This document shows, in pieces, positions 11,179-33,061 of a DNA stretch of 36,061 bases (positions are counted from its first letter, which is position 1; every line of letters starts with the position of its first letter). Source of the DNA: a virus (taxonomy: Duplodnaviria > Caudoviricetes). The stretch is from positions 1-36,061 of IMG/VR virus record IMGVR_UViG_3300025293_000017. One strand, written 5' to 3'. A program made the position numbers and the translations under genes. The notes below the pieces were generated by a model. That model was not told the origin of the DNA, did no database searches, and worked only from the letters and a program-made list of their open reading frames with translations.

Positions 11179-11592
11179 TTATGTCGCGGCAGTCGCCCGT
11201 GCCACATCACTCGCTGACTGAATCGTCACCGGAGCATCGAGGAGGCTTCCCACTGACCCGCCCTGCGGCTGATACGAATCAATCACGCCAATTGCTGAGA
11301 AGCGCGGATTGATTGCCGTCGAGCAGATGGCCTGGGGTCGCCACTCATAACAGGCCGTCGTTCCCACCAGGCTGAACAGCGTCGCGTCAACATTGGCAGC
11401 GGTGTAGTCTTGGTGAAAATTCACGTCAAGACTCCAGGTTTTGAGACCGCCCTTATTGATACGGGTGTCGTCACCCATCGCGGTTTCATCCTGTACCTCA
11501 CTCCCGTAGTTGAACGTCAACGATTCAACGTGGTCGCTCAGGTCTACGCCATTCACCTCGAATAGCGCGTTCTTGTAAATGATTGTTGCCAT
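11179..11592 (-). CDS. Tail tube (major tail) protein
   Basis: GAGGAG RBS; VNGVDLSDHV...DETAMGDDTR..GGL..WSLDVNFHQDY tube-type pattern. Confidence 0.8.
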   Translation of the reverse strand: MATIIYKNALFEVNGVDLSDHVESLTFNYGSEVQDETAMGDDTRINKGGLKTWSLDVNFHQDYTAANVDATLFSLVGTTACYEWRPQAICSTAINPRFSAIGVIDSYQPQGGSVGSLLDAPVTIQSASDVARATAAT

Positions 11593-11614
11593 TTGCCTAT
11601 ACTCCTCTTGGTTG

Positions 11615-11986
11615 TTATTGAATCCCCATAGACGCTAGAAATTTCTGTCCACCGCTTGTCGTGGGTTCCCAATTTGCTCGCCAGAACTGTCTGTGTGTGC
11701 TGGTGACATTTGCTGTAGTCAGTGGCGTTGGCCATTCACCCACACGACATGATGCACTAGTGAACTCCACATGGCAGGTGAACTTCCCGCTTCCGAACCC
11801 ACTGGATGATGACCCTTGAATCCGCACCTTGATTTCACCTGCTGTAGATGACGACAGAATATGAAGAGCCGCATATAACGATGTCCCTGCATAGACGCCA
11901 CCGATGTCATAGGCTGTCCCATATCCGCAGGTTGATACCGCCGTGCCGGATGCGTCCTTTAAGGGTGTGACTCGTGCGATTGCCAT
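11615..11986 (-). CDS. Ser/Thr-rich beta-sandwich virion protein
   Basis: LYAALHIL...VRIQGS...FWRANW beta pattern; about 25% Ser+Thr by hand count. Confidence 0.6.
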   Translation of the reverse strand: MAIARVTPLKDASGTAVSTCGYGTAYDIGGVYAGTSLYAALHILSSSTAGEIKVRIQGSSSSGFGSGKFTCHVEFTSASCRVGEWPTPLTTANVTSTHRQFWRANWEPTTSGGQKFLASMGIQ

Positions 11987-11989
11987 AAG

Positions 11990-12391
11990 CTATGCCTCGA
12001 TACCGCGACCTTCGATGGTCACGTTAAATGTAAGAAGTTCACCAACACCACCGCCGACCGTGAACTCCGAGATCACGCCTTTGAACGCAAAGCCGCCAGG
12101 GGCCGAATCGCCCACGGTCACGCCGTTGGCATAAAGACTCACCACCTTGTCGTCTGTTCCCATCAGTCCAAAGTACGCATCATCGGCAAGATTCGGTGCC
12201 GAGTTCTCCCAAAAGCCTGAACCCGTCACGCTGACGACCTGGAGACCACCTTTATTGATTCTCGTATCATCTCCAAAGCTCGTTTCGTCCTGCATTTCGG
12301 CAGAGTATTCGAGTGTTAATTCTGAATGTGCCGTCGATAGATCGTAGCCATCAATGAAAATGTTTGCGTCTTTATAAATGAGCGTTGCCAT
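11990..12391 (-). CDS. Tail tube-like protein, paralogue of 11179-11592
   Basis: Shares MAT(L/I)IYK, G.DLS and QDETxxGDDTRINKGGL with 11179-11592. Confidence 0.75.
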   Translation of the reverse strand: MATLIYKDANIFIDGYDLSTAHSELTLEYSAEMQDETSFGDDTRINKGGLQVVSVTGSGFWENSAPNLADDAYFGLMGTDDKVVSLYANGVTVGDSAPGGFAFKGVISEFTVGGGVGELLTFNVTIEGRGIEA

Positions 12392-12400
12392 AGTTATATC

Positions 12401-12799
12401 CTAAGCCGTGAGGTCTTTCACAATGCGATAATTACAGGCAATCCGTGTCCGTTCCTGATCGTCACGTTCAAGCATGAACGGCGACTGCAAGGCTTCGATA
12501 TACAGATACCGCGTGCCGTTGATAGTTGTCTGATACAGTCCATCCAATAAATCGAAACACTGATCGGCCGTTGTTCGAGCCGTTGAATAACTGGTCGAAC
12601 GAGTCACCACCTGAATCGACGGTTGCTCCGCGAGTGCTGTGCCAGGCGACCCACTCATCCCATGCACCGCAGGTGATCCTCCTGTTTCGTAAATCGTCAC
12701 CACGGTACTCGGATCACTCGGTTGCCGCCCTCGATAGATGGCAGTCGTCACACCAGAGGTCGTCAGATAGTCGTCCATGTCAGTCAATAATAATGCCAT
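12401..12799 (-). CDS. Tail terminator / tail completion protein
   Basis: IYETGG...EQPSIQVVTRS...Q.PFMLERD..ERTRIACNY pattern; position before tail tube. Confidence 0.75.
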   Translation of the reverse strand: MALLLTDMDDYLTTSGVTTAIYRGRQPSDPSTVVTIYETGGSPAVHGMSGSPGTALAEQPSIQVVTRSTSYSTARTTADQCFDLLDGLYQTTINGTRYLYIEALQSPFMLERDDQERTRIACNYRIVKDLTA

Positions 12800-13122: not shown

Positions 13123-13562
13123 TTGCTTGAAAGGTTCGCTTTCACCCAGCCTCTATAGATCCGGTTTGCAACCTTCTTTCCAATAGTGTCTTTCACGGCC
13201 ATGAGTGGCTTTTCAAGATATTTCGACTGACCTCGCCCTTGATGTTTCAGTTTCATCGAGACCGCTCGACCTTTTTTTCTATCCCAATGTAAATCTTCAT
13301 GCTGGAACATCGCGTATTCGGTGTTATAGCCCATCTCCACCGTGAACGTGTTTGCTTTGTGTGTCGGTTGTTCGACGTGTCCACTCGATCGAAGAGGGTT
13401 GTCGTCGACCGGCACGATGCGCTTCGATGCCGTCATGATGAGTTCGGCTTCCGTATAGAGAGCTTGTCCAATCAATGTGTCGTTCAGGTGTTCCAATTTA
13501 TTCAAGTTCTTTACTACGTTCCTCACACCTGTTAACGAAAAGCCCTTCCCTTTCGTTGCCAT
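13119..13562 (-). CDS. HK97 gp10-like neck protein
   Basis: SKRIVPVDDNPLRSSG...YNTEYAMFQHE...QSKYLEKP; start placed at the TAATG overlap. Confidence 0.75.
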   Translation of the reverse strand: MATKGKGFSLTGVRNVVKNLNKLEHLNDTLIGQALYTEAELIMTASKRIVPVDDNPLRSSGHVEQPTHKANTFTVEMGYNTEYAMFQHEDLHWDRKKGRAVSMKLKHQGRGQSKYLEKPLMAVKDTIGKKVANRIYRGWVKANLSSK

Positions 13563-13906
13563 TACTTGAGCCAAATCTTCGTATGATGGAATCCGCTCTG
13601 GTCTGGCACATGATTTACTGCCAGAATGGTCGGACTCACGATCTCTTGTCCTGTGGACGCCACATCACCAGTCGAGAGCGTCACACGGTCGCCAGCCCCG
13701 ATTTTCACGTTGCTGCCGAGGTAGATGTGCGACCTTGAAAAGACTTCCTGCCCAGTCCAATCTACGACGTTCTCAGCCCGTCCAACGATACGAGCCTTAT
13801 AGGACACGTCTGCACCAAAAGAAGGCTCTCCAAAGTCATTCAGTGAGCTTCTAGGGGCAATGCTGACCGACTGGGGCATCATGTCGAACCATCGGCTCAC
13901 AGACAT
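13562..13906 (-). CDS. Head closure / head-tail adaptor
   Basis: NDFGEPSFG...GQEVFS...GDRVTL pattern; TGATG overlap with the connector gene. Confidence 0.7.
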   Translation of the reverse strand: MSVSRWFDMMPQSVSIAPRSSLNDFGEPSFGADVSYKARIVGRAENVVDWTGQEVFSRSHIYLGSNVKIGAGDRVTLSTGDVASTGQEIVSPTILAVNHVPDQSGFHHTKIWLK

Positions 13907-14574
13907 CAGAAGTACCGCCTCCACGGGTCGATTAACTGGGTCGCCATGTCTTCGGTGCCTTCGGTTGCGTAGGTAATCGCCAAGTCTCCAACCTTCTTAC
14001 TTTTCACCACGCCCTCGGCGTTGATATACAACTGCCGTGCCTTGATCATCGTGGCACGAATAATCTCCTGGGGCATCGTTGCTACCGTTGACGTGACCGC
14101 ATAGGTATCGGTATCGGTGGAACTCGACCCGCTCGTATTCAGGAATCCGGCTTCGTATTCCACCAACCAGGGTGCGGTCTCGGAATTCGGAATCGGGGTG
14201 TAGGTGATATTCCAGTAATTCTGGGCCGTCCACTGCCATCCGCGATCCCGATTTAAGAAACCACCATCCAGATCGACACGATAATCGGTGCTGCACAACT
14301 CAGTCGCGTCACCCGTATCGGTCGCGCTAAAGACGCGACGGACACCGCGAATTGGCGTTCTGGAGAGAGACAGATTGACACCGCCAAAGGCTTTGACGGT
14401 TTCAGAATAAACGGCTCGATGTAAAGGTTGGCCGATATAATTAGCTGTCCACCGGCTCGCGGCGAGATGCGCTTCGTCGATCCCACACGAACTCGCGGTC
14501 ACACCAATGACGCGCATCAGTTCGTCCATTGTCCCGATCAGTTCGTTTGTCGAACTGGCGCATACTGTGATCAC
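13906..14574 (-). CDS. Head-tail connector protein with Ser/Thr-rich insertions
   Basis: VEYEAGF...MPQEIIRA...VKSKKVGDLAITY...LIDPWRR connector pattern. Confidence 0.75.
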   Translation of the reverse strand: MITVCASSTNELIGTMDELMRVIGVTASSCGIDEAHLAASRWTANYIGQPLHRAVYSETVKAFGGVNLSLSRTPIRGVRRVFSATDTGDATELCSTDYRVDLDGGFLNRDRGWQWTAQNYWNITYTPIPNSETAPWLVEYEAGFLNTSGSSSTDTDTYAVTSTVATMPQEIIRATMIKARQLYINAEGVVKSKKVGDLAITYATEGTEDMATQLIDPWRRYF

Positions 14575-14575: not shown

Positions 14576-15397
14576 CTACTGCTCCGTCATGATTGGAATG
14601 TTCGCACCCCTCGCCCGAAGCTCGGCAACCTGCTTCACATATTCAATCTCTTGCAAGGCTCCGTCGAGAGTGGCGGCACTCGCCATGTGTTTGTTCTTGG
14701 CGGCTCGTAAGGCATCGATACGCAGGGTCAGTTCTTCAAGGTTCGGCATCGGCCCCGTGCCTGGGTGTTTCGCGTAGCCATACCGATGGGTCTGAGTCAG
14801 CAAGGCGCATGACTGCGGGATATTGAGGTCAATGCCTTTCCCGTGGGCCACGCCAAGCCAGAACTCAACACATGCCTTCTGGACTTCGTATTCCGTACCA
14901 ACCACCAAGTCAATCCCGTAGAGATGAATCTTGCCGAACCCTTCGCTAATTGCTAGGGCCACCATATAGGCAACCGTCGAGGTGAAGTAATCCGATGCCG
15001 AGGCAATCATGCGTTCAATCGGAAACCGGATGGAGGTCGGCAGGTCAGGATTGCGTTCGACCATATAGATCGGAATCCCGCACTCTCTCAGCCACTTCGG
15101 ATGGTCGGTGCCTTCCACGTTATCTTCAGTCCAGTTCCGATGAATATCGAACCATCGGTCGGCGCGGTCAATATGTCGATACAGTTGATTGAGGCCCCAT
15201 ATCTCGACACGCTTATCATCAAACGGAATCAGGTGCCGTGTGCTTGAGGCGAATCCACAGATGGCAACTTCTGATCGCGGAGGATTGACTTCGACAATGG
15301 CCTCATCGCCATCAATGACCTTCGGATGGGCTGCACAAGGATGATCTGGATTAACACCCACACTCTCGGCTACTGCATCAGTGACATGACTACTCAT
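14576..15397 (-). CDS. Putative Maf/DUF115 (sialyltransferase-like) glycosyltransferase, copy A
   Basis: VAICGFASS...IWGLN...DRWFDIH...STVAYMVALAISEGFGKIHLYGIDL; C-terminal coiled coil. Confidence 0.6.
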   Translation of the reverse strand: MSSHVTDAVAESVGVNPDHPCAAHPKVIDGDEAIVEVNPPRSEVAICGFASSTRHLIPFDDKRVEIWGLNQLYRHIDRADRWFDIHRNWTEDNVEGTDHPKWLRECGIPIYMVERNPDLPTSIRFPIERMIASASDYFTSTVAYMVALAISEGFGKIHLYGIDLVVGTEYEVQKACVEFWLGVAHGKGIDLNIPQSCALLTQTHRYGYAKHPGTGPMPNLEELTLRIDALRAAKNKHMASAATLDGALQEIEYVKQVAELRARGANIPIMTEQ

Positions 15398-15639
15398 TGG
15401 TTTCCTTTGCGTTTGGCGGTAGAGACACGACGACGCACTCGCGCCTGTCGATGTTTCGGTGGGGTAGGTGGTGCGGCGGTGTGGACTGAGGAATCTGACC
15501 GCAGAGCAGTCGCTTTGACACGACCACTCTGGATCAGAGATTCCGCTACGTCATCATCGACACCAAGAGCTTCACCGCACCTGTAATGCACACCGGCTAA
15601 CGCTAAAGCTCTCCCGACAACAATCACCCGCATCGCCAA
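15394..15639 (-). CDS. Small basic hypothetical protein after the capsid genes
   Basis: GEALGVDDDVAESLIQSGRV motif typical of short post-capsid ORFs; ATGA overlap with the next gene. Confidence 0.55.
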   Translation of the reverse strand: MAMRVIVVGRALALAGVHYRCGEALGVDDDVAESLIQSGRVKATALRSDSSVHTAAPPTPPKHRQARVRRRVSTAKRKGNQ

Positions 15640-15653
15640 AGTCTAGCACTTCA

Positions 15654-16256
15654 CTACGCCGTTGTCTTAACAACAACTCCGGTGGACGTGCTATTCGGCA
15701 ATGACTCTGCCGCATCACCCAACGCCAACGCACCAGCGATCCGAAGCACGCTGCCACCTGACGATGATGCGTGAACTTCTGGAAGCAGGTTGACACTCAA
15801 GAATCGCTGTGCGCCTGTCAGCGCATACGTTCCAAGATCGCCATACCATACGGCTGTTCCGGTGCTGGTTGAAATTCCTGCATCGGTAGACATCCGGCCT
15901 GAGGCATTGCCTGTGCTGGTTGCTGTCGTGTTGGTGACAATATACAAGCCCTGCAAGCCCTTACGGTCTGCGGTGGACAACTCATTGAAGTCGCCAACAC
16001 AGGTCGTCGATGAGTGCATCATCTTGACTTGGAAGCCGACGAATCCGCTATCCACCGTCGTGGTGCCAATCTCGCCAACAGCCGTCATCACCGCTTTCAC
16101 GGAGTTGAAGCTATTCCCAAGACCCACTCTATCAACGATGAGGCCCATCACCTCATTGCCAGTGCTGGATGCGTTCACACTTCCACAGCTTGCGTCGAAT
16201 GTGTGGTGTTCTAGCACTGAGAACTGCGCTGTCTGACTTAATCCTCTATTGATCAT
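15654..16256 (-). CDS. Capsid decoration / cement-like protein, Ser/Thr-rich
   Basis: Immediately follows the major capsid gene, own GGAGAGG RBS; beta-rich; about 50/200 Ser+Thr by hand count. Confidence 0.65.
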   Translation of the reverse strand: MINRGLSQTAQFSVLEHHTFDASCGSVNASSTGNEVMGLIVDRVGLGNSFNSVKAVMTAVGEIGTTTVDSGFVGFQVKMMHSSTTCVGDFNELSTADRKGLQGLYIVTNTTATSTGNASGRMSTDAGISTSTGTAVWYGDLGTYALTGAQRFLSVNLLPEVHASSSGGSVLRIAGALALGDAAESLPNSTSTGVVVKTTA

Positions 16257-16286
16257 GATTCAACCTCTCCACTTATTCAGTGCTAA

Positions 16287-17564
16287 TTAAAAGTCTCCAG
16301 GTGCCCAATCGACTCCCGTGAGAACCGCAATGGCTGCGTCGTGTCGCATTCCAAAGTCATGCTCTGAGATGGCACGCACGACCGTCTGATCCTGCGAGTA
16401 GGCAGCGATGACGTTTGACCCGTCATGGTAGGCTGCCGTATCACTAGCACTGACTTGAAGAGATGCGCTTTCACCGATGATGGCCTGACTAAAATCGACG
16501 AAGTAGATTTCGCTTTCATCGTTACTGCCAGCACCAGTCGTGTCAAGTGTGATCGGAATACTGGTAGTGCTTCGAAATGGGAAGCCCCACAGTGTTCCTC
16601 CAGCCATCTCATCTCGGAAGGCAGGAACGCCATTCGCGTTGAGAGCGGTCATCAACATCTGCTCCGTGCGTGGCGCGAAAAGCCACCCTGGGGTAGTCAT
16701 CGGCACGTTGCCTTCTTGTAACGCCAACACCAATTTGCCAAGGTCTTGGAAGGTGTTGACAAGACTGACCGTGCCATCAGCAGCAATCTTGTTGCCACCA
16801 GGACACCAACTGAGGAGTCCGCGAGGCGCACCATCAGTGCCGTCGCCTCGGATGAACTTCTGGTCTTCTTTGACGCGCATCCCTTCCACTAGGTCAGTCC
16901 GAACCACTTGGTCGGCTCCCGGTGAACTGTAGCGAATCAGGTCATTGCTAATCGGCGTCAGCACCGCGAGCTTCTTGAACGACAACTTGAGATTGCCGAA
17001 CACTTGCTCGCTCTCAGCGATGTTCGTGTTTTCGCCGATGTAGGCCGCTGTCGCCCCACTCGTGAGCTTCGGAATGTTCAGCGTTCCAGATCCCGCGATG
17101 GAAATCGTGGTGGCACCCATTGCACGCACTACCGACCGTGCGCGCAGCAGTTCGATGAGTTCTGTGCTGTATTCCTCTGGCACGAGAAATCCACCACTCG
17201 CCGCATCACCAGCCGACAGTGCTTTGGTGCGAGCCTCCTGCCACTTGTCGGCAAGGTCATCATCGCCCCATCGCTTGAGTTGACTAATCGCGCCATCAAC
17301 ACCAGCGTCGTTGAGCTTGGCCCAGGCTGTTGCACGAAGGCAACGAGCAAGAGCGACCCCTTTCTCCCGTTCCCGTTTCTGCGGAACGCTCGATGCGGCC
17401 ATAGCTTTCGTGGTCAGTGCCTCCGTTCGTTCTCGAATCGGAGCCACCGCTTTCTCAATGTTGTCTCGTACTAGCTCGGCCACATTGTTGTCGCAGAATT
17501 CCTTGATCTCAGGAACGACCTGTTCCTTGATGTGGTCGGTTAGCTGTTCTCTGGTCAATCGCAT
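16287..17564 (-). CDS. Major capsid protein, HK97 fold
   Basis: SGGFLVPEEYSTELIELLR, AAYIGEN, FIRGDGT...PRGLL, N-terminal delta-like region; GAGGTG RBS. Confidence 0.95.
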   Translation of the reverse strand: MRLTREQLTDHIKEQVVPEIKEFCDNNVAELVRDNIEKAVAPIRERTEALTTKAMAASSVPQKREREKGVALARCLRATAWAKLNDAGVDGAISQLKRWGDDDLADKWQEARTKALSAGDAASGGFLVPEEYSTELIELLRARSVVRAMGATTISIAGSGTLNIPKLTSGATAAYIGENTNIAESEQVFGNLKLSFKKLAVLTPISNDLIRYSSPGADQVVRTDLVEGMRVKEDQKFIRGDGTDGAPRGLLSWCPGGNKIAADGTVSLVNTFQDLGKLVLALQEGNVPMTTPGWLFAPRTEQMLMTALNANGVPAFRDEMAGGTLWGFPFRSTTSIPITLDTTGAGSNDESEIYFVDFSQAIIGESASLQVSASDTAAYHDGSNVIAAYSQDQTVVRAISEHDFGMRHDAAIAVLTGVDWAPGDF

Positions 17565-17589
17565 GTGTATTCACCTCTTGTTAGAAAAG

Positions 17590-19149
17590 TCAGTCAACGC
17601 GACCCGATGCACGGTTGACCATTGCCCGAACTTCCTTGTCTACAACTTGCGCGACGGTGTTGGTTGTAGCATCGACAAGGGCATCCCTCAACATATTGGG
17701 ATCAATATCGACATGCAAATCAGAATCGCCCTCAATGAGTTCAATAAACTCATCATCAACGCTTGCCTGATTCGGCACGCTCTCCTTCTTTGGTTTTGGC
17801 TTGTCGGTGTAAAGCCCCGACCCTTCGACATATCGGAAAGTATTCTGGAACCTGTCCACGTTCTTGATCGTTTCTCTGACCGCAACCTTGATGTTATTCA
17901 TTTCCTTGCGAATAGCATCAAGGAACTGGTTCATGTCGTCCATGTGTTCTTCAGGGACGTCCTCGGCCTTTCCCTGTTCTTTGTTGTCTTGATCTGTGAT
18001 CTCTGGCATAGGTTCACTCATTAAGTCCTTATCATGAACAGCAACCGACTCGGCCTCATCGGTGAAGCCGTGCGTCTGAAGAAGTGCGCCCAACTCCACG
18101 TCACTGATATCGGCATGGGCATCTCGAACTTCAATAAACTTTGTCCATGACTCCACATCCCGTTCCCAGGGAGCCACGCGGTCAAATTCTTTGTAATGGT
18201 TGGCCAGATGTGCGCGAATCTTTCCGAAGTCGTCGGCAGTGAAGCCTGTCTGATCAAGTCGTCCAGCCGCCGCCGCGACACCACGAAATACCACATCAGC
18301 CCCTTGTGGGCGATGGTGCGGAAGTTTCAGGTCGCCATAATTTGCTGGAGGCATATCAACCGCATACGTGAAATGCCGTGAAATTGCTCTGCGTTTGTCA
18401 GCGTCAACTGAATCCCACGGAGCCGACGTAAAGTCTCTCAGCGATGGCCGACTCCACATTTCGTTCATCGGGGCCAGGCCATACTCGGACGGATTGTTCG
18501 GAACCATCCCCTTCGTCTCGGTTGATTTAGGGTCGGCTTGTGTCAGCCAGGACTTCGCCCATGCCGTTATCGGCTCAACATCAATGCCGTCTTTTGAGGC
18601 GGCGATTAAAGCGTGAGGATTGGCAGGAATCGGAACGACACTATATTCGAGCAGTTCTTGTTCCTCGAAGTCGAACCCTTGTTGCCCGTTGTCTCGCTCG
18701 GTAGACTTGAACTTCTGCGGTCTAAATCCAACAGATACCGCATTCAGAAAGCCTCCCTTGATCATCCGGTACACCGTATCGGCAAACGGATTCAGGTCGG
18801 CGGTGGCAAACTCGGCAGTCGAAACCAGGCTTCCATCTTCTTCTTCAATAGAGATGGCCCGTGCGATAGGGAGTTGCTTGTAGTCGTGCGCGAACATGAC
18901 CACTGGATTCTGTCGATAGGCGTTTAACACCCACCCTTCAGATCGTAGTCGGTCATTCTCGCGGTCAACGTCACCCGTGGAGATGGTGAACTTGATGCGA
19001 CGTTGCCCCACATCTTCGGCATTAGCAACGGCCTGTTTCCTGACAATCGTTTGCGTGCCGTCATCGCCACCTTGGACTCGCTGCTTCCAGTCAACCAGAT
19101 CAAGCACGGTCGGCACAGGTGTTGTGCCTTGTGTTTTAGAGTTGCTCAT
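17590..19149 (-). CDS. HK97-type prohead protease with extra central domain and scaffold-like C-terminus
   Basis: DREND...NPVVMFAHD...GFLNAVSVGF...LLEYSVVPIPANP; start placed at ATG 19149, downstream of the terminator. Confidence 0.9.
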   Translation of the reverse strand: MSNSKTQGTTPVPTVLDLVDWKQRVQGGDDGTQTIVRKQAVANAEDVGQRRIKFTISTGDVDRENDRLRSEGWVLNAYRQNPVVMFAHDYKQLPIARAISIEEEDGSLVSTAEFATADLNPFADTVYRMIKGGFLNAVSVGFRPQKFKSTERDNGQQGFDFEEQELLEYSVVPIPANPHALIAASKDGIDVEPITAWAKSWLTQADPKSTETKGMVPNNPSEYGLAPMNEMWSRPSLRDFTSAPWDSVDADKRRAISRHFTYAVDMPPANYGDLKLPHHRPQGADVVFRGVAAAAGRLDQTGFTADDFGKIRAHLANHYKEFDRVAPWERDVESWTKFIEVRDAHADISDVELGALLQTHGFTDEAESVAVHDKDLMSEPMPEITDQDNKEQGKAEDVPEEHMDDMNQFLDAIRKEMNNIKVAVRETIKNVDRFQNTFRYVEGSGLYTDKPKPKKESVPNQASVDDEFIELIEGDSDLHVDIDPNMLRDALVDATTNTVAQVVDKEVRAMVNRASGRVD

Positions 19150-19163
19150 AAACGTCCAGACAT

Positions 19164-19206
19164 AAAAAAAAGCGGCACAGGCTGACAGCACGTCAACCTC
19201 TACCGC
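19164..19206 (-). terminator. Intrinsic terminator overlapped by an alternative antiterminator fold
   Basis: GCGGUA-G-AGGUUGAC-GUGCU-GUCAGCCU-G-UGCCGC followed by U8. Confidence 0.75.
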
Positions 19207-19243
19207 AAACCTCGTCCTCGTGCGGAGAGCAGAACTGTCAGCA

Positions 19244-19272
19244 ATTCTGCATTACTGCAAACTGATTGTCAA
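19244..19272 (-). promoter_or_regulatory. sigma70-type promoter upstream of the protease-capsid genes
   Basis: TTGACA (19272-19267), 17-nt spacer, CAGAAT (19249-19244). Confidence 0.6.
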
Positions 19273-19278
19273 TGTTAA

Positions 19279-19473: not shown

Positions 19474-19839
19474 TTAGTAGGTAGCTCTCTCGGCCATCCT
19501 TGCTTCGACCATTGACTCATTCAAATTCACACCATCAGCCCATACCGTTACCAACCATCGGCCATACTTGCCTTGAGCCTTTTCATTTGATGGGCGTGTT
19601 TCAATCATGACGTAATCAGCGTGATCCATTTCCTTTATCAACCAGTCACGCGACGCGATTCCTCGATCACGTTCTTCGCCTCGAACCTCTGGCGCATTGA
19701 TACCGTAGAGCCTACCCGTAACCGTTAAAGTGGCACTGAACCCTAAGTCAAGTCGCAATTCCATAAGCGTGTCGCCATCATAGACACGACAATCAAGCAT
19801 CGGAAACATCCAACGATGGCGTAACACTCCGATAGGCAT
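19474..19839 (-). CDS. Thermonuclease (SNase-like) family nuclease
   Basis: RVYDGDT...RLYGINAPE...GKYGRWL. Confidence 0.88.
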   Translation of the reverse strand: MPIGVLRHRWMFPMLDCRVYDGDTLMELRLDLGFSATLTVTGRLYGINAPEVRGEERDRGIASRDWLIKEMDHADYVMIETRPSNEKAQGKYGRWLVTVWADGVNLNESMVEARMAERATY

Positions 19840-20597
19840 CAGGTGACAAGTGTTTTGACCTGTTCGATGTGTTCGGCACGGTCAAGGTTCAGGTTTCTGA
19901 CTCGTTGCTCCGTCCACCGCTTTTCTGTCCAATACTCATAGCCGTAGCGGTGCGGGTGACGTAGGGTCGAGCTATGGTCAGGGAAGGCGACTCGACCACC
20001 GCGACCTTGAAAGAGTCCGAGCCAGTATGTGACAGATGGAAGCTCCACCTCACGTTCTCGGTCGCTACCGAATACCAAGTCCACACCATAGAGTCCAATC
20101 TCCTCAAAGCCTTCAACAATCGCCAGGGCAATTTGATAGGCAAACGTGCAGGAAAAGTAATCCGCATAGCCTAACGCTTCAATGGATTCCATCGGGAATC
20201 GAAGCGTATTCGGCAAATCCGGTTCGTGGTTCAACGTATACAGTGGGCGCGGATTGTTGTGAATCCACTCCATGTCGTCGGCGTTCTGCACCGACATCGG
20301 ATGCAGTTCAAACCATCTGTCAGCACGAAGTCGTTCGTGTGGGTCAAGACACATCACCAGATTACATGACCACACTTCGAGGTCGGGATCATCAAACGGC
20401 AAGGCATACCGCAACGGCATCCCGCCAATAATCGCCAACCGTTTGCGCTTCGGAGACAGGTCGAGTGTGCCAGCCGCCGCGTCCAGAATCGTCCACTTAG
20501 CGTTGAGTGGATGTTCGACGACCTGCTGACTTGCTCTTGGCTTTAGATGATCCACTGGTGGTCTTTCTCGCTGCTGCTGTTCGCTTGTGAGTGGCAC
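19839..20597 (-). CDS. Putative Maf/DUF115 (sialyltransferase-like) glycosyltransferase, copy B
   Basis: LAIIGG...VWSCN...DRWFELH...CTFAYQIALAIVEGFEEIGLYGVDL; collinear with 14576-15397; start uncertain. Confidence 0.6.
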   Translation of the reverse strand: MPLTSEQQQRERPPVDHLKPRASQQVVEHPLNAKWTILDAAAGTLDLSPKRKRLAIIGGMPLRYALPFDDPDLEVWSCNLVMCLDPHERLRADRWFELHPMSVQNADDMEWIHNNPRPLYTLNHEPDLPNTLRFPMESIEALGYADYFSCTFAYQIALAIVEGFEEIGLYGVDLVFGSDREREVELPSVTYWLGLFQGRGGRVAFPDHSSTLRHPHRYGYEYWTEKRWTEQRVRNLNLDRAEHIEQVKTLVT

Positions 20598-24805: not shown

Positions 24806-24812
24806 ATCGTCC

Positions 24813-26299: not shown

Positions 26300-26320
26300 C
26301 TTTTGAGACTTTCCTCTCTA

Positions 26321-26905
26321 TTAAGCATATCCTGCTGCCCCGCCTCTTACTGACGCACCGTCACGATAGAGATGTTGCTGGTGTTTATAGTGACGTAATT
26401 CATCAGGTGAACGAAGCTCACGAATCTTCTTGGCGTAGGCTTGTCCTGTGGAGAATGTTTTCAGATGGGCGCGGTCGAGAATCTCTGAATACAGACACCA
26501 ACCGAGAAGCGTATAGTCCGTCTTAATATCCTGCTCTGTCTGGTTCCACGTTTCACACAGCATGAGTGCATACGCATCCACTGATTTTAAGTCTCTGTTC
26601 TTTTTCAGCGGCACGATAAGATGGTCGGTGCGTCTGGTAACAGCTTTGACATCCACACGTAGACCAGAAGGCAAGACGCAATCGTAGCCACCGAAACGCG
26701 GTTCAGTCGTAAGGTCTGGATAAGCATTCATTAACTTAGAGAACGCCACCTCTGCACCAAAGCCACGTCGCTCCATGACCATTGGTGAGGAATTCGCATA
26801 GAGCGCATCTGTCACACCAGCCTTTCGGTTGCTCAGATACCGACAGTTCGAGACAAACTCAACGAGACGCAGTTCTGTCTTGTTCAATGTCGTGCTGTTA
26901 TCCAT
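26321..26905 (-). CDS. Hypothetical protein, PD-(D/E)xK nuclease-like
   Basis: GAEVAF...GGYD...RVDVKA motif spacing. Confidence 0.5.
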   Translation of the reverse strand: MDNSTTLNKTELRLVEFVSNCRYLSNRKAGVTDALYANSSPMVMERRGFGAEVAFSKLMNAYPDLTTEPRFGGYDCVLPSGLRVDVKAVTRRTDHLIVPLKKNRDLKSVDAYALMLCETWNQTEQDIKTDYTLLGWCLYSEILDRAHLKTFSTGQAYAKKIRELRSPDELRHYKHQQHLYRDGASVRGGAAGYA

Positions 26906-26907
26906 GT

Positions 26908-28140
26908 CTATCCCCTTTTCATATTCATTTCATAGACCTTCTGAACAGCTTGCCCCAGTACGGCTCCCACCCGCACAGCATCCGTGTCGCTCATGGATGC
27001 AATGATATTGCCACATGACCGATGTAACAAGATTCCCGCACGAAATGACAGGGCTAACACCTGGTTAAGCTCGGCGTCTGTAAGTCCAGTAAGACGAAAG
27101 TGAACTGGATACCCTTCCATTAAGCCAGGCGTTCCATTCGCCTCAGCATTGAAGGCTTCGCGTAGAACATGACCTCGTTCCCACATTCGTTCACTAATCG
27201 ACTCCGTGCGATATCGTGTGATGACTTCCTTGGCGGCTGATAGTCCAAGCAACGACCCGCCAAACGTGCTACTGATCAGTTGAGCTTCTTCCATGACATC
27301 TCGCGTCCCACAGATAGCGGCAATCGGGACACCGTTGCCAAGAGCTTTCCCAAAGCACGCAATGTCAGGAATCGTGTCGCTCTTGCACCAGAGTTGTTGA
27401 CTGCCACCGAGCGCATGACGGAAACCGAAAATCATTTCGTCGAAGATTAACAGTGCCCCATGCTTGTCAGCGAGTCGTCGAGCTTCGGTGTAGAACCGTC
27501 GTTGTGAATGCTGCGTGATATCCAGTGAGTCGGCAACAGGAAAACGATACGGCTCGATCACAATCGCTGCCACCGCATTAGGTAAGGGGTCATCGAGTGA
27601 GTCCAATACTCTTGCAAGGTCGGCGTGGTCGTTATCACGGAACGTCGTGATGTGATCGTTGACCTTGCTGTAGTATTCTGTCGCGTTCTTGGGATCGGCA
27701 TAGCGATGTGGAGCTTGACACCATTCATGCCAGCCATGATACGAATGTTGAGCCACTACCACTGTGCTTTGACCTGTAACGGCACGCGCAATCTGCACGG
27801 CTCCCTGCATGGCTTCGCTGCCAGTCATGACGAACCGCGTCATCTCTGCACACGGAATAACTTCTGACAACCTGGTGGCGACTTCATTCTCAAGGCGATG
27901 GGGCAATGACAGAATTGACCCCATCGTCAGGGCATCACTCACGGCCTTCGTGACTCCCACATCCCCATAGCCCAGTGAAATCGCGCCAAGTCCTGCGACT
28001 AAATCAATCACCTTGGACTCGTCAGAACACACGACACGACACCCTGACCCCGACTCGGCATAGCAAGGATAGACGTCGGTTGGCCCAACGGCACCAAAGG
28101 CTTTCGACCGTGTTTGCGAATCGCCTGGTGTGTGCAACAT
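26908..28140 (-). CDS. Class III PLP aminotransferase (GSA-aminomutase-like)
   Basis: TGSEA, SYHGW, FDEMIFGFR, PDIACFGKALGNG. Confidence 0.9.
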   Translation of the reverse strand: MLHTPGDSQTRSKAFGAVGPTDVYPCYAESGSGCRVVCSDESKVIDLVAGLGAISLGYGDVGVTKAVSDALTMGSILSLPHRLENEVATRLSEVIPCAEMTRFVMTGSEAMQGAVQIARAVTGQSTVVVAQHSYHGWHEWCQAPHRYADPKNATEYYSKVNDHITTFRDNDHADLARVLDSLDDPLPNAVAAIVIEPYRFPVADSLDITQHSQRRFYTEARRLADKHGALLIFDEMIFGFRHALGGSQQLWCKSDTIPDIACFGKALGNGVPIAAICGTRDVMEEAQLISSTFGGSLLGLSAAKEVITRYRTESISERMWERGHVLREAFNAEANGTPGLMEGYPVHFRLTGLTDAELNQVLALSFRAGILLHRSCGNIIASMSDTDAVRVGAVLGQAVQKVYEMNMKRG

Positions 28141-28836
28141 CTACGACGCCCCTTTCAACATCCCGCAGAGGCGTGCCCCCTCAAGGACGTTCTGTGCCGA
28201 GTAGTCGTGAGGCACGAGATATCCACACACCTGTCGAACTCGGTCAAGGTCTTTTTGTCGATCCACGCTGAGCTTCAGATAGCCATAGTCGTGTTCGGAT
28301 AATACGTCATGAGTTTTATAGTTCGAGCGAATCCACGGCGTAACGTGTTCACGGTCATGGCGAGCATTCGCACGTTGAGCCGCCTCATGTAAGACTTTGG
28401 CTGACATGACTTCCGTATCAAACCCATCCGGCCATCGCGCTTGACGGCCGACATTAGACACATAGTCATAGGTCGATTTCAGGTATTCGTCCAAAACGTA
28501 TGACGACACATCTGAGGCCAGCAACGGACAATCACCAGTGATACGCATCACCACATCGGCCTTCATAAATCGTGCAGCATGATCCATGCGTCCCAACACA
28601 TCCCACTCCGACCCACGATAGACACAGATACCACTCGATGGACGCTCAAATACTGCCGCCAACCGATCATCATGTCCGTTGACACTGGTAACAAGACAGA
28701 TTCCGGTGAGTCCTTCTATGCGAGAGACACGAGTTATGACGTGCTGAATCATGGACTGACCAGCAATTTGAGAGAGCGATTTTCCCGGCAATCGCTTCGA
28801 CCCCATACGAGCCTGAATCAGCGCGACAACTTTCAA
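28141..28836 (-). CDS. spsF: SpsF-type cytidylyltransferase (CMP-nonulosonate synthetase family)
   Basis: IQARMGSKRLPGK, RGSEWDVL, RITGDCPL, DREHVTPWI, LSVD. Confidence 0.88.
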   Translation of the reverse strand: MKVVALIQARMGSKRLPGKSLSQIAGQSMIQHVITRVSRIEGLTGICLVTSVNGHDDRLAAVFERPSSGICVYRGSEWDVLGRMDHAARFMKADVVMRITGDCPLLASDVSSYVLDEYLKSTYDYVSNVGRQARWPDGFDTEVMSAKVLHEAAQRANARHDREHVTPWIRSNYKTHDVLSEHDYGYLKLSVDRQKDLDRVRQVCGYLVPHDYSAQNVLEGARLCGMLKGAS

Positions 28837-29864
28837 TGGACCACTCTCTCGACAGCACGTGCCTGACAGGAGTGAATCGGTTGAAGAAAATCCTCACCCC
28901 CAAAGCCGCGACGGAAGAACTCGATATTGGATTCCTTTTCGGTGACGCTGCCTCCCTGATGACCCATCTCGTAATACTTCACACCGAGTTCCTTTAAGCG
29001 TTTGATGATGGCCCACTGAATTGGATGTGACACGTTCGGTGCAAGACTCGCAGCACTGGCATAGTAGGCATAGTCTTTCCATCGCAACACATACGCAAAT
29101 CCAAGAACGCTCTCGCCTTCTCTTGCCACAAACCACGACGCATGGTCAGCCAGCACGAAGCTATCCTGACAGACCCATGAATCGGACGGGCGCGTCACCC
29201 GACCGGAGGCGCGGTGGTGTAAGTCTTGGCACAGTTCCCTGGTGTGATCGTGCCGTTCCTCAGTGACCGTGATTGCCGAGTCTCGAATGATGTGCCTGTA
29301 GCTTTTTCTCACGTCAGCCCATAACCTAGTCAGGGGGATAGATAGATCGATAATACGTGTCCTGATGGAGTCTTCCTGCCAGCCGTTGTCTAATACCAAT
29401 GCTGAATACATCGGTGGATTGCACCACATTCCTTTAAGCATGTCATCAGGAACAAAGTGTGGATGAATCGGCATTATGCGAAAACCGACACGACTATCAG
29501 CGTGACTCACTACCGACTCCAACACTTCACACATGATCGGCAACACGACATCCATCGCAAACCGTTCGTCTGGATGATCCACCAACGCTTCATGCAACAG
29601 CAATGGGGCAGGGGCAGGAAGGTCGCCAAGCCCAAACAGGTTAAGCTCTGGATGATAGGTGAGAAGTTGTGCGGCCACGACTCTCCCGTCTACCGTCACG
29701 CCCCATGAATGATCGACGAGTGTCGGGTTCCGTGCTATCTCATAATCCCGCCAGAGCGGTCGATTCCAGAACCAGAGGGCGTCTTTTTTGATGACAAGCT
29801 CGTCAACTTGTTCTGTGATCTTTACACCTGACACCGGAACCACTTGGATTCGTGTGTCTTTCAT
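28833..29864 (-). CDS. GNAT/FemAB-like acyltransferase
   Basis: IIDLS...LWADVRKSYRHII, AYYASAAS, IQWAII..LKELG..YYEMG, FFRRGFGG; start at the ATGA overlap. Confidence 0.75.
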   Translation of the reverse strand: MKDTRIQVVPVSGVKITEQVDELVIKKDALWFWNRPLWRDYEIARNPTLVDHSWGVTVDGRVVAAQLLTYHPELNLFGLGDLPAPAPLLLHEALVDHPDERFAMDVVLPIMCEVLESVVSHADSRVGFRIMPIHPHFVPDDMLKGMWCNPPMYSALVLDNGWQEDSIRTRIIDLSIPLTRLWADVRKSYRHIIRDSAITVTEERHDHTRELCQDLHHRASGRVTRPSDSWVCQDSFVLADHASWFVAREGESVLGFAYVLRWKDYAYYASAASLAPNVSHPIQWAIIKRLKELGVKYYEMGHQGGSVTEKESNIEFFRRGFGGEDFLQPIHSCQARAVERVVH

Positions 29865-30388
29865 AACCGATAGTCCAGTGTCCAGATGTCTCCGCGTTGA
29901 CGACTCACCCAAAAGCCGCACGACCGAAACGCGCACAGCGATGGCTCGTTGTGTCGCTTGACGACTGCTTCAAGAGTTGGTACGCCGAGATCCTTGGCCT
30001 TGCGACAGACGGCACGAAGCATTGGTGTGGCATACCCACATCCTCGGTGAATCGGCGCGACAGTAATCGACACCCGACCATGACGCAGCAGATGGCGATT
30101 CGGTGAATGCGAGTCATCCTGCACAGAAGGTCGCAAGTCGAGGGCAACGGTTCCAAGATCATCCCACTGAGTATGAGCAATAAACGACGGCGTGAGCGGG
30201 TCTTCCATCATGCTGTGGAGCCACTCCAGATGGTCATCGAACTCAATCGGATCTGAGGAAAGCGAGTTTCGTCGTGTCTGTGGATCGTTGGCCCATCGAT
30301 ACAGCAGGGGTGCGTCATCTGCCGTGACCTTTCTCAGCCCAACCACGGGATCTGAACCCTGGTGATCCCTGGTATTACCTGGTCTCAT
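29861..30388 (-). CDS. PseH-like GNAT N-acetyltransferase
   Basis: LYRWANDPQTRRNS...HLEW, HRGCGYA, NEPSLCAFRSCGF. Confidence 0.8.
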   Translation of the reverse strand: MRPGNTRDHQGSDPVVGLRKVTADDAPLLYRWANDPQTRRNSLSSDPIEFDDHLEWLHSMMEDPLTPSFIAHTQWDDLGTVALDLRPSVQDDSHSPNRHLLRHGRVSITVAPIHRGCGYATPMLRAVCRKAKDLGVPTLEAVVKRHNEPSLCAFRSCGFWVSRQRGDIWTLDYRL

Positions 30389-31233
30389 ACTCCGACGCGA
30401 AACTGCGCCATCTCCGCTTCTTCGTCCACCTGTTGCTTGTCAGAAGTTCCCATCGCCAGTTCAGCGACCTCCACGTTCAGGACATAGCTCTGTAGCTGGT
30501 CAGGAGTCATGGCGTGTGCATAGTCTGGATTCTTCGGGTCGGTGTCAGGCACTCTGAAATGTGCCTCAAGAATCTCAGCACCCGCACAGACCGCAAGTGC
30601 GCCAGAGGTCACGTAGTTGGGAGCCGTATGATCTGAGAATCCACTAAACGCCAAGGCTTCACGCTTGTTGTCGCCCTTCGACGGAGCCAGGAACGAGCGA
30701 CGCAATACCTTCAAATTTAGCGACCCGTAAGAAGCCGGATACGCACTGACGCAATGCAACAGCTTGAGTTCGTCGGCGGTATAACTGAACGCGAAGTCCA
30801 GATCATTGATACTGGTCATGCCTGTGCTGACGATCATGGGCTTCATACATGCAGACATTGCGTCCCGCAACTCTGCATCCTGGCACTCAAATGACGAAAT
30901 CTTAAACATCGAGACATGCGGGGCGATGACCTCGACATCCTCTGGCAAATAGACGGTGCAAAGATAATCGACCCCTCGTTGCTTGGCGATAAGAGCAAGT
31001 TGTTCATGCCACTCGGCTGGCCATTGAAGGAGATTCTTATAGTGGGCCGCGAACGGAGTCTTCGTCGCGTGGCGGCGTTTCGCCATTTTCCTGGCTGAGC
31101 TTGTCCATTGAAACTTCACCGCACTTGCGCCAACAGAAGCCGCGACCGTGATGAGATGTTCCATCTTTGAAAGGGACGCATCCCCGCAGGATCCAGCTTC
31201 AGCGATGAGGGTCGTTTTGATATTGTTGGGCAT
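30385..31233 (-). CDS. neuB: NeuB/PseI/SpsE-family nonulosonic acid synthase, lacking the C-terminal SAF domain
   Basis: IAEAG, AVKFQ, FKISS, KPMIVSTGM, LLHCVSAYP, GFSDHT, ILEAHF. Confidence 0.9.
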   Translation of the reverse strand: MPNNIKTTLIAEAGSCGDASLSKMEHLITVAASVGASAVKFQWTSSARKMAKRRHATKTPFAAHYKNLLQWPAEWHEQLALIAKQRGVDYLCTVYLPEDVEVIAPHVSMFKISSFECQDAELRDAMSACMKPMIVSTGMTSINDLDFAFSYTADELKLLHCVSAYPASYGSLNLKVLRRSFLAPSKGDNKREALAFSGFSDHTAPNYVTSGALAVCAGAEILEAHFRVPDTDPKNPDYAHAMTPDQLQSYVLNVEVAELAMGTSDKQQVDEEAEMAQFRVGV

Positions 31234-32062
31234 CGTGAATCATCTCCACGACAAGCGCACCATCTGTGATAGTGGCTGCCGTTGTTGAAGGTTTCCGAAG
31301 TGTCAGAGCTTGCATGAAGTCCTTGAGTTCGTCTTTATACATCGGTGCAATCGCTGACGGTGGATGTCGCAAATTATAATTAGTCTTCGTCTGGTCGTCC
31401 CATGCGACAGTCAGGGTTCGACATTCCTCTCGTGGATGGCTGACATATTTCAACTCACAATCAATTTCCAAGTCTTCTTTCTTTTTGCGTGGCGCGGTAA
31501 GACCAATCCATGCCGAGGTCGGTTCCACCTGTGCGAAGTTGACGCGAGTCGCCCCAAAGAAGTGGCAAGCAAGATCAAGTTCATGACTGGCTTCATAAAT
31601 GACATCCCCATACGTCGAAGCGAATCCCGGCCAGAGACTTCGACACGAATAGCATGTCAGCTTGACATGGGTCGCTCTGGTTCCTTTTTTAAGCGTGGCA
31701 CACATCTCGCTCATGGCACGAATTATCGTGCGATTAAACCGCCAGCAGTAGCCGACCTGCGTGATACGTCCCACGCTCATCTCTACCAGGGAGGTCGCCT
31801 CGTCAAGCGATGAACATAACGGCTTCTCGATAAAGACTCCCGCCTCGGTCTGTTCAAGTGCATCTTTTGCGATGTCGTAGTGGGTTGAGAATGGTGTGCA
31901 GATCAGAATCCCATCAGGCTGACGAGACAATGCGTCCTCAAGTGGAGGCGAATCTGAGACTCGTGGGTCAACAATTTCGATGTCATCTTGGACACCGAGA
32001 GCGAGGGCGTTCCGATGATGACGCTTGCCAATGGAACCGAATCCAATAATGAGCAGTCGCAT
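31199..32062 (-). CDS. Gfo/Idh/MocA NAD(P)-dependent oxidoreductase
   Basis: IIGFGSIGKRH, ICTP...H, FIEKP, VGYCWRF, SHELD. Confidence 0.9.
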   Translation of the reverse strand: MRLLIIGFGSIGKRHHRNALALGVQDDIEIVDPRVSDSPPLEDALSRQPDGILICTPFSTHYDIAKDALEQTEAGVFIEKPLCSSLDEATSLVEMSVGRITQVGYCWRFNRTIIRAMSEMCATLKKGTRATHVKLTCYSCRSLWPGFASTYGDVIYEASHELDLACHFFGATRVNFAQVEPTSAWIGLTAPRKKKEDLEIDCELKYVSHPREECRTLTVAWDDQTKTNYNLRHPPSAIAPMYKDELKDFMQALTLRKPSTTAATITDGALVVEMIHDAQQYQNDPHR

Positions 32063-33061
32063 TCAATATCCCTGCTCGTCTGCTGATGCGATAAGTGACC
32101 GTAGCTGGGCGTCATTCATGAGCCTATCCGGTGCGTTGCTGGTGTATCGGTAGGTGGAAGGCACGGCTTTTCCTGCCCAGGCATCCTGCGTCCACGTTGG
32201 GCCAGATGGCGGGACAATGTAGAGGTCACACGACGAATCATAGAGTGTGCGGGTTACTTCCTCAGTCGAGAGCAAGACCTCATGCACCTTCTCGCCACCA
32301 GCCCGAATTCCAATAACAGACGCATTGAGTTCTCTGAAGTTCCCTGTCTGCCTAACGACTGTTCGCATCAAGTCATGCACGGATGCCGACTTGAGTGACG
32401 GCACGAAGATTTCGCCACCCACTTGACGATCTATCGCTTTCCAGACCAGTTCAACGGCCGCCGATAACGGCATCCAGAACCGTGTCATCTCGGTGTCGGT
32501 AATCTGTAGCCGCTCACCTCGCTGTTGCTGCTTGCGCCAGAGTTGCAAGACCGACCCGCGTGAGCCAAGCACGTTGCCGTAGCGCACGACAGACGCACGG
32601 AACGTCTCAGGGTGATAGGCATTGGAGCCAATCACGAAACCCTCAGCACTGGCCTTGGTTTTGCCATATTGGTTCATCGCCTCAACCGCTTTATCTGAAC
32701 TGATGAAGACCAACTGCTTGACCCCACAGGCAAGACAGGCATTGACGACGTTCATTGTGCCGATGACATTCGTCTTAATCAGTTCGCCGCCATCGGTGTG
32801 GGCGTTGACCCGTTTCAATGCCGCCGCATGAACCACCACGTCCGTGCCATAGAACGCCTGACACAGCCGATGATAGTCACGCACGTCCCCCAGGTAGGCG
32901 CGGAACTGGTGATAGGTTTTGAACTGGTCGCCAATCTGGTCAGCTTTCACCTCATCGCGTGACAAGGAAATCAGTCGCGTCACTTCTGGATGATGCTCTT
33001 GACAGTGCCCGATGAAGGCTCGACCAAAACTGCCCGTCCCGCCTGTGACCAGTATCTTCAT
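32063..33061 (-). CDS. pseB: UDP-GlcNAc 4,6-dehydratase (PseB/FlaA1 type)
   Basis: TGGTGSFG, SRDE, GDVRD, HAAALK, SDKAV..N.YGKTK, RYGNVLGSRGSV, MTRFW; start moved to ATG 33061 (GAGG RBS). Confidence 0.9.
   Translation of the reverse strand: MKILVTGGTGSFGRAFIGHCQEHHPEVTRLISLSRDEVKADQIGDQFKTYHQFRAYLGDVRDYHRLCQAFYGTDVVVHAAALKRVNAHTDGGELIKTNVIGTMNVVNACLACGVKQLVFISSDKAVEAMNQYGKTKASAEGFVIGSNAYHPETFRASVVRYGNVLGSRGSVLQLWRKQQQRGERLQITDTEMTRFWMPLSAAVELVWKAIDRQVGGEIFVPSLKSASVHDLMRTVVRQTGNFRELNASVIGIRAGGEKVHEVLLSTEEVTRTLYDSSCDLYIVPPSGPTWTQDAWAGKAVPSTYRYTSNAPDRLMNDAQLRSLIASADEQGY

Follow-up and report, generated by a model that had tools for sequence, protein, structure and literature searches.

Why does a tailed phage carry genes for sugar synthesis next to its packaging genes, and what is the sugar for? 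The question is raised by IMG/VR virus record IMGVR_UViG_3300025293_000017 (Duplodnaviria; Caudoviricetes), which we analysed over its entire length of 36,061 bases (the window, G000; CheckV 54%). Its minus strand holds every gene from the ATG of a PseB-like gene at 33061 down to 11179; no gap exceeds 87 bases, and many genes overlap by 4 bases. Three components share this run: a cluster of genes of the nonulosonate (sialic-acid-like sugar) type, two putative transferase genes, T1 and T2 (together the T family), and virion proteins with patches rich in Ser and Thr.

We consider it likely that the phage glycosylates its own virion proteins by Maf-like O-nonulosonylation, with a donor made by its own late-gene cluster. 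A first-pass annotation had seen the same three components in one co-oriented run, which we confirm, and had interpreted them as a self-contained system with Maf-family transferases and Ser/Thr/Cys-rich acceptors. That interpretation is partly supported. The predicted transferase fold, gene co-occurrence and Ser/Thr contrast speak for it; "self-contained", "Maf-family" and "Cys-rich" are the parts that did not hold.

The genome is of the siphovirus type, with terminase, portal-MuF fusion, HK97-type protease and capsid, connectors, three tail-tube paralogues, tape measure and lysin. A second record, G001 (47,034 bases, with terminal repeats), encodes proteins 100% identical to those of the window. 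Our family scans covered 47 window proteins for Pfam and 15 proteins for NCBIfam; the 12 kb of G001 beyond the window lie outside these scans. Below, G numbers denote records and L numbers denote loci.

Two predicted transferase genes in the head module

T1 and T2 are 252 and 273 amino acids (aa) long. They are paralogues, as the first-pass annotation had proposed (77/199 residues identical, 39%; E 3e-45). Database searches return 206 homologues for T1 and 528 for T2. Neither protein matches a Pfam (E<=0.01), PHROG or NCBIfam family, and hence neither matches the GT42 Pfam family. PF01973, the Maf core, matches neither T1 nor T2; among 87 T2 relatives it gives two matches, the best at E 0.23.

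The predicted structure points to sialyltransferases. The AlphaFold 2 (AF2) model of T2 has a predicted local distance difference test score (pLDDT) of 89.6. When it is compared to the PDB with Foldseek, GT42 sialyltransferases account for all nine matches at E<=1e-3, and the tenth-ranked match is a GT29 enzyme. VIA aligns the model with CstI (GT42) at Z 11.2 (root-mean-square deviation 3.3, 160 aligned residues). Maf (5mu5) is tied with CstI at Z 10.6 (deviation 3.4, 160 aligned), within residues 259-498 of 5mu5 only. The GT29 enzymes ST8SiaIII, ST3Gal, ST6GalNAc2 and ST6Gal1 score below both GT42 and Maf (Z 6.0-7.5). Among viral structure models, the named matches of T2 are MptE-like/DUF115 and GT29.

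Sequence profiles return the same family. The T1 profile A2 finds 12 matches in the PDB, nine of them GT42 chains (best E 0.019), and for the joint profile A11 it is nine of ten; both align two colinear motifs, and kinases are absent from both sets of matches. The T2 profile A1 finds no PDB sequence at E<=10. A Maf/GT29/GT42-like fold, the check that the first-pass annotation had put forward, is thus predicted for T2 by Foldseek and VIA and for T1 by sequence profile.

Residues N70, H86, S140, D163 and E169 of T2 are invariant in 87/87 sequences, and N79, H99 and E181 of T1 in 107/107. At the position of T2 S140, T1 has Cys in 97/107 sequences; the acidic position is D or E in 78/107. GT42 enzymes carry a catalytic histidine in the lid region. 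The invariant His of T2 and T1 (H86 and H99) lies upstream of the second motif. The activity of Maf enzymes depends on a conserved Ser and two acidic residues, and CbMaf requires S334 and D357 (bioRxiv 2020.06.03.131540). These residues are spaced as S140 and D163 are in T2 (23 residues), which is suggestive, spacing being all that was compared.

By predicted fold and sequence motifs, T resembles GT42 and Maf enzymes, yet by membership tests it belongs to neither family. The label "Maf-family" is not supported for proteins of about 250-270 aa (the Maf chain 5mu5 has 632) that lack PF01973 and match CstI just as well.

A predicted cluster for the donor sugar

Seven adjacent genes make up a nonulosonate-type cluster in the Pfam and NCBIfam scans (Table 1). 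The first-pass annotation had placed PseB, PseH-like, NeuB and SpsF genes just upstream of the packaging genes. These genes are there, but the cluster is larger, and three open reading frames (ORFs) separate it from the terminase gene: a 194-aa orphan, a DNA methylase and a 97-aa ORF. The orphan adjoins the aminotransferase gene in G003 and G030-G032, not in the other relatives listed.

The dehydratase, N-acyltransferase, synthase and cytidylyltransferase of the PseBCHGIF pathway are all present at family level. All seven cluster genes score under the NCBIfam equivalog cut-offs, so that neither pseudaminic nor legionaminic acid can be given as the product. The PseB-like protein shows the patterns GxxGxxG, SxDKA and YxxxK, which we take to be those of such enzymes. 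NeuB has positions of types E, K, Q, S, D and H that are invariant in 8/8 phage copies, among them E12, K40, Q42, K111, S136, H202, E223 and H225; the Pfam scan found no SAF domain in the window NeuB.

The same set of genes, in varying order, occurs in G002-G008 (no oxidoreductase was detected in G004 and G008), and part or all of it in G030-G033, G039 and G040. In G010 (14605-23513) part of the cluster stands in reverse orientation, flanked by the protease gene and T1, either through an inversion or as an assembly artefact. An 896-aa ORF of G040 (L176:14451-17141) joins a GNAT to a class-III aminotransferase. Among 50,697 cultured phage records the window NeuB has two matches, neither in a close relative, and the window adaptor has none.

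Serine and threonine patches in virion proteins

The candidate acceptors are accessory virion proteins. Seven of them (decoration, adaptor, connector, a 106-aa ORF, terminator and two tail-tube paralogues) pool to 21.4% Ser+Thr, compared to 13.2% in the 37 other window proteins. This set was picked after its composition had been seen, so the contrast is descriptive and its P value was set aside as circular. The independent test is the comparison of orthologues (below). The order Ser-Thr is also favoured. Ser-Thr dipeptides are observed 205 times vs 73 in shuffles, and likewise 107 vs 52, 37 vs 18 and 33 vs 12; for the capsid the counts are 39 vs 45. The residue after the dipeptide is mostly G, A or S. 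The major capsid protein shows no enrichment, and we discarded it as a candidate for carrying patches.

Each patch is a discrete insertion, and only accessory virion proteins have them. In the decoration protein, three patches fall in segments under pLDDT 50 of a low-confidence model (pLDDT 60.8 from 10 sequences), whose jelly-roll-like matches are weak. The Ser/Thr-rich insertions of the adaptor are missing in four adaptors from phages without T.

The patches had first been described as Ser/Thr/Cys-rich in decoration, connector and tail proteins. Ser and Thr are rich there, and in the adaptor as well, but Cys is not: each patch protein has 0-3 Cys. We rejected Cys-richness and retain Cys solely as a neighbour of Ser/Thr clusters, where C-[ST]-[ST] is found 15 times vs 4 in shuffles for decoration proteins, 19 vs 2 for adaptors and 8 vs 1 for the tail tube. 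Both tail-tube Cys are lost jointly in L135, which suggests a disulfide.

Three tail-tube paralogues stand in tandem (window 11179-12391). The first corresponds to the N-terminal and the second to the C-terminal half of phrog_9522, and in G006 both appear as one ORF (17463-18236); they are a split or fused tube-accessory pair.

Patches, transferases and pathway across relatives

If T modifies the patches, then phages without T should lack them. We found sister phages with a related capsid in which the T2 slot is empty. T is absent from all 23 of these control records (0/23), as is the cytidylyltransferase (CTP_transf_3, 0/23); NeuB is found in 0/5. Decoration proteins have 3.44 Ser-Thr dipeptides per 100 residues in 28 clusters with T (each with at least 3) vs 0.10 in 7 clusters without T (0 or 1 each). 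For adaptors the values are 2.01 (23 clusters) vs 0.11 (8 clusters). The tail tube ends in Ser or Thr in 14/14 clusters with T and 0/2 without. Capsid, protease and Neck1 do not differ. Orthologues were clustered at 70% identity, and the Mann-Whitney P values ignore relatedness. Left out were the podovirus and metagenome-assembled genome (MAG) loci L156, L167, L182, L183, L191 and L192, fragments under the length floors, ORFs of more than 330 aa for small proteins, and sequences more than 70% identical.

The positions of the transferase genes are fixed. T2 follows the capsid gene or precedes the adaptor gene in 78/80 T2 loci and follows the connector gene in 2 (near-copies included). T1 stands between portal and protease in all loci that show both.

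The transferases also travel with the pathway. Among the 29 longest T2-bearing records, 9 have NeuB and 10 the cytidylyltransferase. Where completeness reaches 90% or more, both genes are present in 6/6 T2 records, a count that includes this phage (G001). G009 (80% complete) has neither, but its record ends within the portal gene. In the reverse direction, T occurs in 5/12 further NeuB records. Most misses are fragments, and the only complete record of the 12, G040, carries T1 and T2. G038, whose portal is of the podovirus type, encodes NeuB along with a T-domain protein of 541 aa and two proteins with 26% Ser+Thr. In L357, a metagenome locus with unrelated gene order, T overlaps the start of SpsF within a sugar cluster. 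The proposed co-occurrence of neuB and spsF with the transferase is thus borne out in the records of at least 90% completeness and in the absence of CTP_transf_3 from the controls. The proposed covariation of Ser/Thr enrichment with the transferase is borne out in that the patches are largely absent from T-less sisters, with the reservation that this is about one phylogenetic contrast (see below).

Table 1. Features of the window, in order along the run (all coordinates refer to the window)
Feature	Coordinates	Strand	Basis and remarks
PseB-like UDP-GlcNAc 4,6-dehydratase	32063..33061	-	PF02719 E 6e-75; TIGR03589 PseB 287.6 bits vs cut-off 407.75
GFO/IDH/MocA oxidoreductase	31199..32062	-	PF01408 E 1e-12; kept in relatives' clusters
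NeuB-family nonulosonate synthase	30385..31233	-	PF03102 E 2.7e-42; NeuB_NnaB 129.8 and PseI 113.9 bits, both under cut-off
PseH-like GNAT acyltransferase	29861..30388	-	PF13302 E 5e-15; TIGR03585 E 9.5e-8, under cut-off
FemAB-like GNAT, possible aminoacyl/acyl tailoring	28833..29864	-	TIGR04421 E 1.4e-13; PF13480 E 3e-4
SpsF-like CMP-ulosonate cytidylyltransferase	28141..28836	-	PF02348 E 6e-25
Class-III pyridoxal phosphate (PLP) aminotransferase	26908..28140	-	PF00202 E 4e-40; top NCBIfam match PRK06209
194-aa orphan after the cluster, membership uncertain	26321..26905	-	no Pfam, PHROG or NCBIfam match
T1, predicted GT42/Maf-like transferase	19839..20597	-	between portal-MuF and prohead protease; paralogue of T2; profile A2
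200-aa predicted beta-sandwich decoration protein, main candidate acceptor	15654..16256	-	after capsid gene; 25% Ser+Thr, 9 Ser-Thr dipeptides, conserved patches
T2, predicted GT42/Maf-like transferase with long C-terminal helix	14576..15397	-	between decoration and adaptor genes; AF2 model
Head-tail adaptor, candidate acceptor	13906..14574	-	two Ser/Thr-rich insertions; phrog_442 E 2e-19
Head-tail connector, weak candidate acceptor	13562..13924	-	phrog_3881
Tail terminator, candidate acceptor	12401..12799	-	23% Ser+Thr; PF12691; one T-less orthologue for comparison
Tail-tube accessory paralogue	11615..11986	-	25% Ser+Thr; C-terminal half of phrog_9522; no T-less orthologue to compare
Major tail protein	11179..11592	-	C-S-T motif, C-terminus ending Ser/Thr; phrog_4574

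Proposed mechanism

By analogy with the pathways for pseudaminic and legionaminic acid (Pse/Leg), the PseB-like enzyme would dehydrate UDP-GlcNAc. The class-III aminotransferase and the two GNATs would aminate and N-acylate the product, with the oxidoreductase in a tailoring role. A hydrolase, either host-supplied or unrecognised, would release the sugar from UDP. NeuB would then condense it with phosphoenolpyruvate, and the SpsF-like enzyme would make the CMP-activated form. As Maf does, T1 and T2 would transfer the sugar to Ser/Thr in the cytoplasm, here during assembly. Within the decoration, adaptor and tail proteins, the target may be a loosely defined motif, small-S-T-small (S-T-G/A/S). 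T1, with Cys at the position of T2 Ser140, and T2 probably differ in acceptor or step. What the phage would gain is speculation: a charged, hydrated shell might alter adhesion, aggregation, or the access of proteases and grazers.

We lean, by a small measure, towards a wider claim as well. A widespread clade of uncultured tailed phages may have a complete system of writer, donor and acceptor. Its seven genes would make a phage-specific nonulosonate by a non-canonical route; its writers would be a new, minimal family of O-nonulosonyltransferases for proteins, divided into two specialised paralogues; and its virion proteins would have acquired dozens of Ser-Thr sequon insertions to bear the sugar, so that the particle is densely coated in a sialylated-like manner.

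Alternative explanations

A number of observations, gathered here, count against virion glycosylation by T, and several of them favour another explanation. The TM-scores of the T2 model to GT42 enzymes are just 0.36-0.41, and its predicted fold appears to be common to MptE/TPK kinases and SteA. VIA gives Z 9.6 for HPPK/MptE (8sd5), 8.7 for SteA and up to 6.4 for TPK, and among the named clusters of the Atlas the closest is MptE-like (0.80, for 16% of members). T1 and T2 would then be pyrophosphokinase-like, or non-catalytic nucleotide-binding assembly factors of the same fold. We find this hardly credible, given that the sequence profiles return GT42 and no kinase, that the N, H, S, D/E and E positions are invariant, and that T overlaps SpsF in L357.

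The donor pathway has apparent gaps. A PseG/LegG/NeuC-type hydrolase matched none of the 47 (Pfam) or 15 (NCBIfam) window proteins, and neither scan detected a PseC/LegC-type aminotransferase in the cluster, which has the class-III aminotransferase instead. Hence, the label "self-contained" is not supported. Furthermore, GT42 and GT29 enzymes sialylate glycans, not proteins (bioRxiv 2020.06.03.131540). In another scenario the virion proteins are glycosylated, but a different enzyme starts the glycan and T adds a cap or an extension, or else T draws on a host donor such as CMP-Kdo or CMP-Neu5Ac; the phage cluster would then do no more than tailor or boost the donor. The unmatched hydrolase step and the preference of GT42 and GT29 for glycans both suit this scenario. 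Maf enzymes accept CMP-Neu5Ac and CMP-Kdo (same preprint), and donor promiscuity of the Maf type could account for T without a pathway, as in Microcystis phage Mvi-Yong1342-1 (PP496355.1) and in the MAG locus L191, whose genome has its own CTP_transf_3. The two paralogues could also act in sequence. We nevertheless judge such a division of labour decidedly unlikely: the scans, which covered the 36-kb window but not the remaining 12 kb of G001, detected no further glycosyltransferase family, and the seven-gene cluster is kept across relatives.

The comparison with relatives has weak points too. All 23 control records fall short of 90% completeness, five of them being tail-only fragments. Connector and tail-tube composition does not differ significantly between phages with and without T (3 and 2 controls), and T-less L315 has 2 Ser-Thr in its adaptor. 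The T-less sisters form a single branch of the capsid tree, a quick tree that contains two spurious outgroup rows (L195 and L196) and one long branch (L318). Hence, the patch contrast amounts to about one independent evolutionary event. In L357, the proteins checked have no Ser-Thr excess. G037 (92 kb, 80% complete) has three NeuB genes and GT4 genes, but no T. PP496355.1, which is complete and cultured, has a T homologue just before the terminase gene, no patches and no match to NeuB or CTP_transf_3. T stands among tail genes in L191, again without patches.

Phages that have T but no patches, and a contrast that amounts to about one event, would also be expected if pathway and T remodelled the host surface (lipopolysaccharide, capsule, flagellin or S-layer), blocking superinfection or altering recognition, the patches being a trait of the lineage. 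The nearest solved relatives, CstI and CstII, act on lipooligosaccharide. Cyanophage S-SCSM2R carries kdsA, kdsB and 13 glycosyltransferases, which its authors read as serving cell-surface modification (PMC12801897); their reading of kdsA and kdsB as host-surface modification likewise tells against a virion target. We consider host remodelling unlikely. Both T genes are fixed among capsid-assembly genes, a late position that would fit virion assembly better than a conversion moron, and the patches are discrete insertions in accessory virion proteins only.

Finally, the cluster abuts a DNA methylase gene and lies near a Mom-like gene. DNA-modification genes also stand beside the clusters of relatives, where queC/queD/queE/folE-type genes or methylases lie between cluster and terminase. 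PMC12619734 cites virus glycosyltransferases that modify DNA. The cluster could thus serve DNA hypermodification, in which case T would act on a base, or on the DNA as it is packaged. This is very improbable in our view: the DNA-modification genes vary among relatives while cluster, T1, T2 and patches stay, the T genes lie among head genes, and no base hydroxylase was detected in the window.

Neighbouring genes and other loci

The methylase gene (window 25064-26299) encodes an N6/N4 DNA methylase with a ParB-like N-terminus; the Mom-like gene lies at 35195-35737. Between sugar cluster and terminase, L109 (4523-8670), L111 (9343-11555) and L184 (1122-5008) carry queC/queD/queE/folE-type and phosphoribosyltransferase genes, which by their families suggest 7-deazaguanine DNA modification in these relatives.

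In the head module, the portal protein (gene at window 20497-23049) continues into a MuF-like domain with a basic tail at the C-terminus; among relatives, G006, G008 and G040 have separate genes. A staphylococcal-nuclease-like gene (19474-19839) directly follows T1 and is found elsewhere in relatives. A 389-aa orphan (2171-3340), whose homologue in G005 lies at another place, precedes the lysis genes. Between tail genes stands a Cys-rich ORF of 195 aa (4798-5385); neither of these two has a family match above threshold.

GIY-YIG/NUMOD3-type endonuclease genes lie just before T2 in L128 (8145-8966) and L045 (6261-6902), assigned by Pfam in L128 only. In Pontimonas phage phiPsal1 (MG835450.1, L195:6587-8959), the slot of T2, there directly behind the capsid gene, holds genes annotated as GT1 and GT2 glycosyltransferases and a methyltransferase. 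The T homologue of PP496355.1 (L192:34781-35584; 32% identity, E 3e-25) is annotated "type 11 methyltransferase". In L357 (226-11229) the sugar cluster contains T plus extra genes; it lies on an unrelated 45-kb contig, with apparent virion genes around it. G037 (19001-35000, L172) holds three NeuB, two cytidylyltransferase-like and three GT4 genes and no T-family gene, which is a different sugar system. A scan of the genome collection with profile A2 found a single locus, on a 4.9-kb MAG contig.

Discussion

Each element of the system has a precedent: virion glycans in mycobacteriophages, sugar clusters in Megavirinae, and Maf. One of the closest known systems is Maf, which O-glycosylates flagellin with nonulosonates. 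T2 shares with Maf the predicted fold (5mu5, Z 10.6), nearby donor genes and the Ser-to-Asp spacing of CbMaf, and in both cases the likely acceptors are Ser/Thr-rich proteins, of a filament or of a particle. Unlike Maf, T is 252-273 aa long (the 5mu5 chain has 632), has no flanking domains and no PF01973 match, and is encoded by a phage among its head genes. GT42 enzymes of Campylobacter (CstI/CstII) and Pasteurella (2p2v, 2p56, 1ro7, 1ro8, 9c08) are the top structural and sequence-profile matches, with two colinear motifs. CstI/CstII sialylate lipooligosaccharide glycans; T shares 14-17% identity with these GT42 enzymes and matches no Pfam family, and T2 has a 43-residue C-terminal helix. The cluster in turn departs from Pse/Leg pathways by its class-III aminotransferase, oxidoreductase and FemAB-like GNAT, with no matches to PseC or PseG.

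Mycobacteriophage virions are reportedly glycosylated by other glycosyltransferase families with host donors. Those glycosyltransferases, like the predicted ones of the present phage, are phage-encoded; their glycans sit on the C-termini of capsid and tail tube (Freeman et al. 2023, as cited in PMC12619734). The Ser/Thr ends of tail-tube proteins in phages with T echo these tail-tube glycans (PMC12619734). The present phage differs in its candidate acceptors, which comprise decoration, adaptor and tail proteins and leave out the major capsid protein, in its donor cluster and in its predicted sialyltransferase-type fold.

Virus-encoded amino-sugar pathways of bacterial type, with transferases for the virus's own particle, are also known from fibril glycosylation in Megavirinae (PMC10117803). 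These eukaryotic giant viruses use the six-carbon sugars viosamine, bacillosamine and quinovosamine, and the word "nonulosonic" is absent from that text. The sps pathway of Bacillus subtilis for legionaminic acid is similar in its UDP-linked route, SpsE (NeuB) and SpsF, and in coating a dormant particle. That particle, however, is a cellular spore with its crust, and SpsC and SpsG have no match in the phage (PMC7439481). Our literature search, which did not extend to subscription papers and supplements, found no report of a nonulosonate pathway in a phage or of a Maf/GT42-like phage enzyme with virions as its target.

The usual assumption is that the protein of phage particles is unmodified; mycobacteriophage glycosylation is the exception in the papers cited here. 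If our interpretation is correct, and the phage makes a nine-carbon acidic sugar of its own and has evolved patches to accept it, flagellin-type O-glycosylation would extend to viruses. It would explain why sugar-synthesis genes stand among packaging genes, as opposed to being genes for host metabolism. A Ser/Thr sialyltransferase of 250-270 aa with a short sequon would be a compact enzyme for glyco-engineering. The interpretation would also predict a surface chemistry of the virion that bears on adsorption, aggregation and decay.

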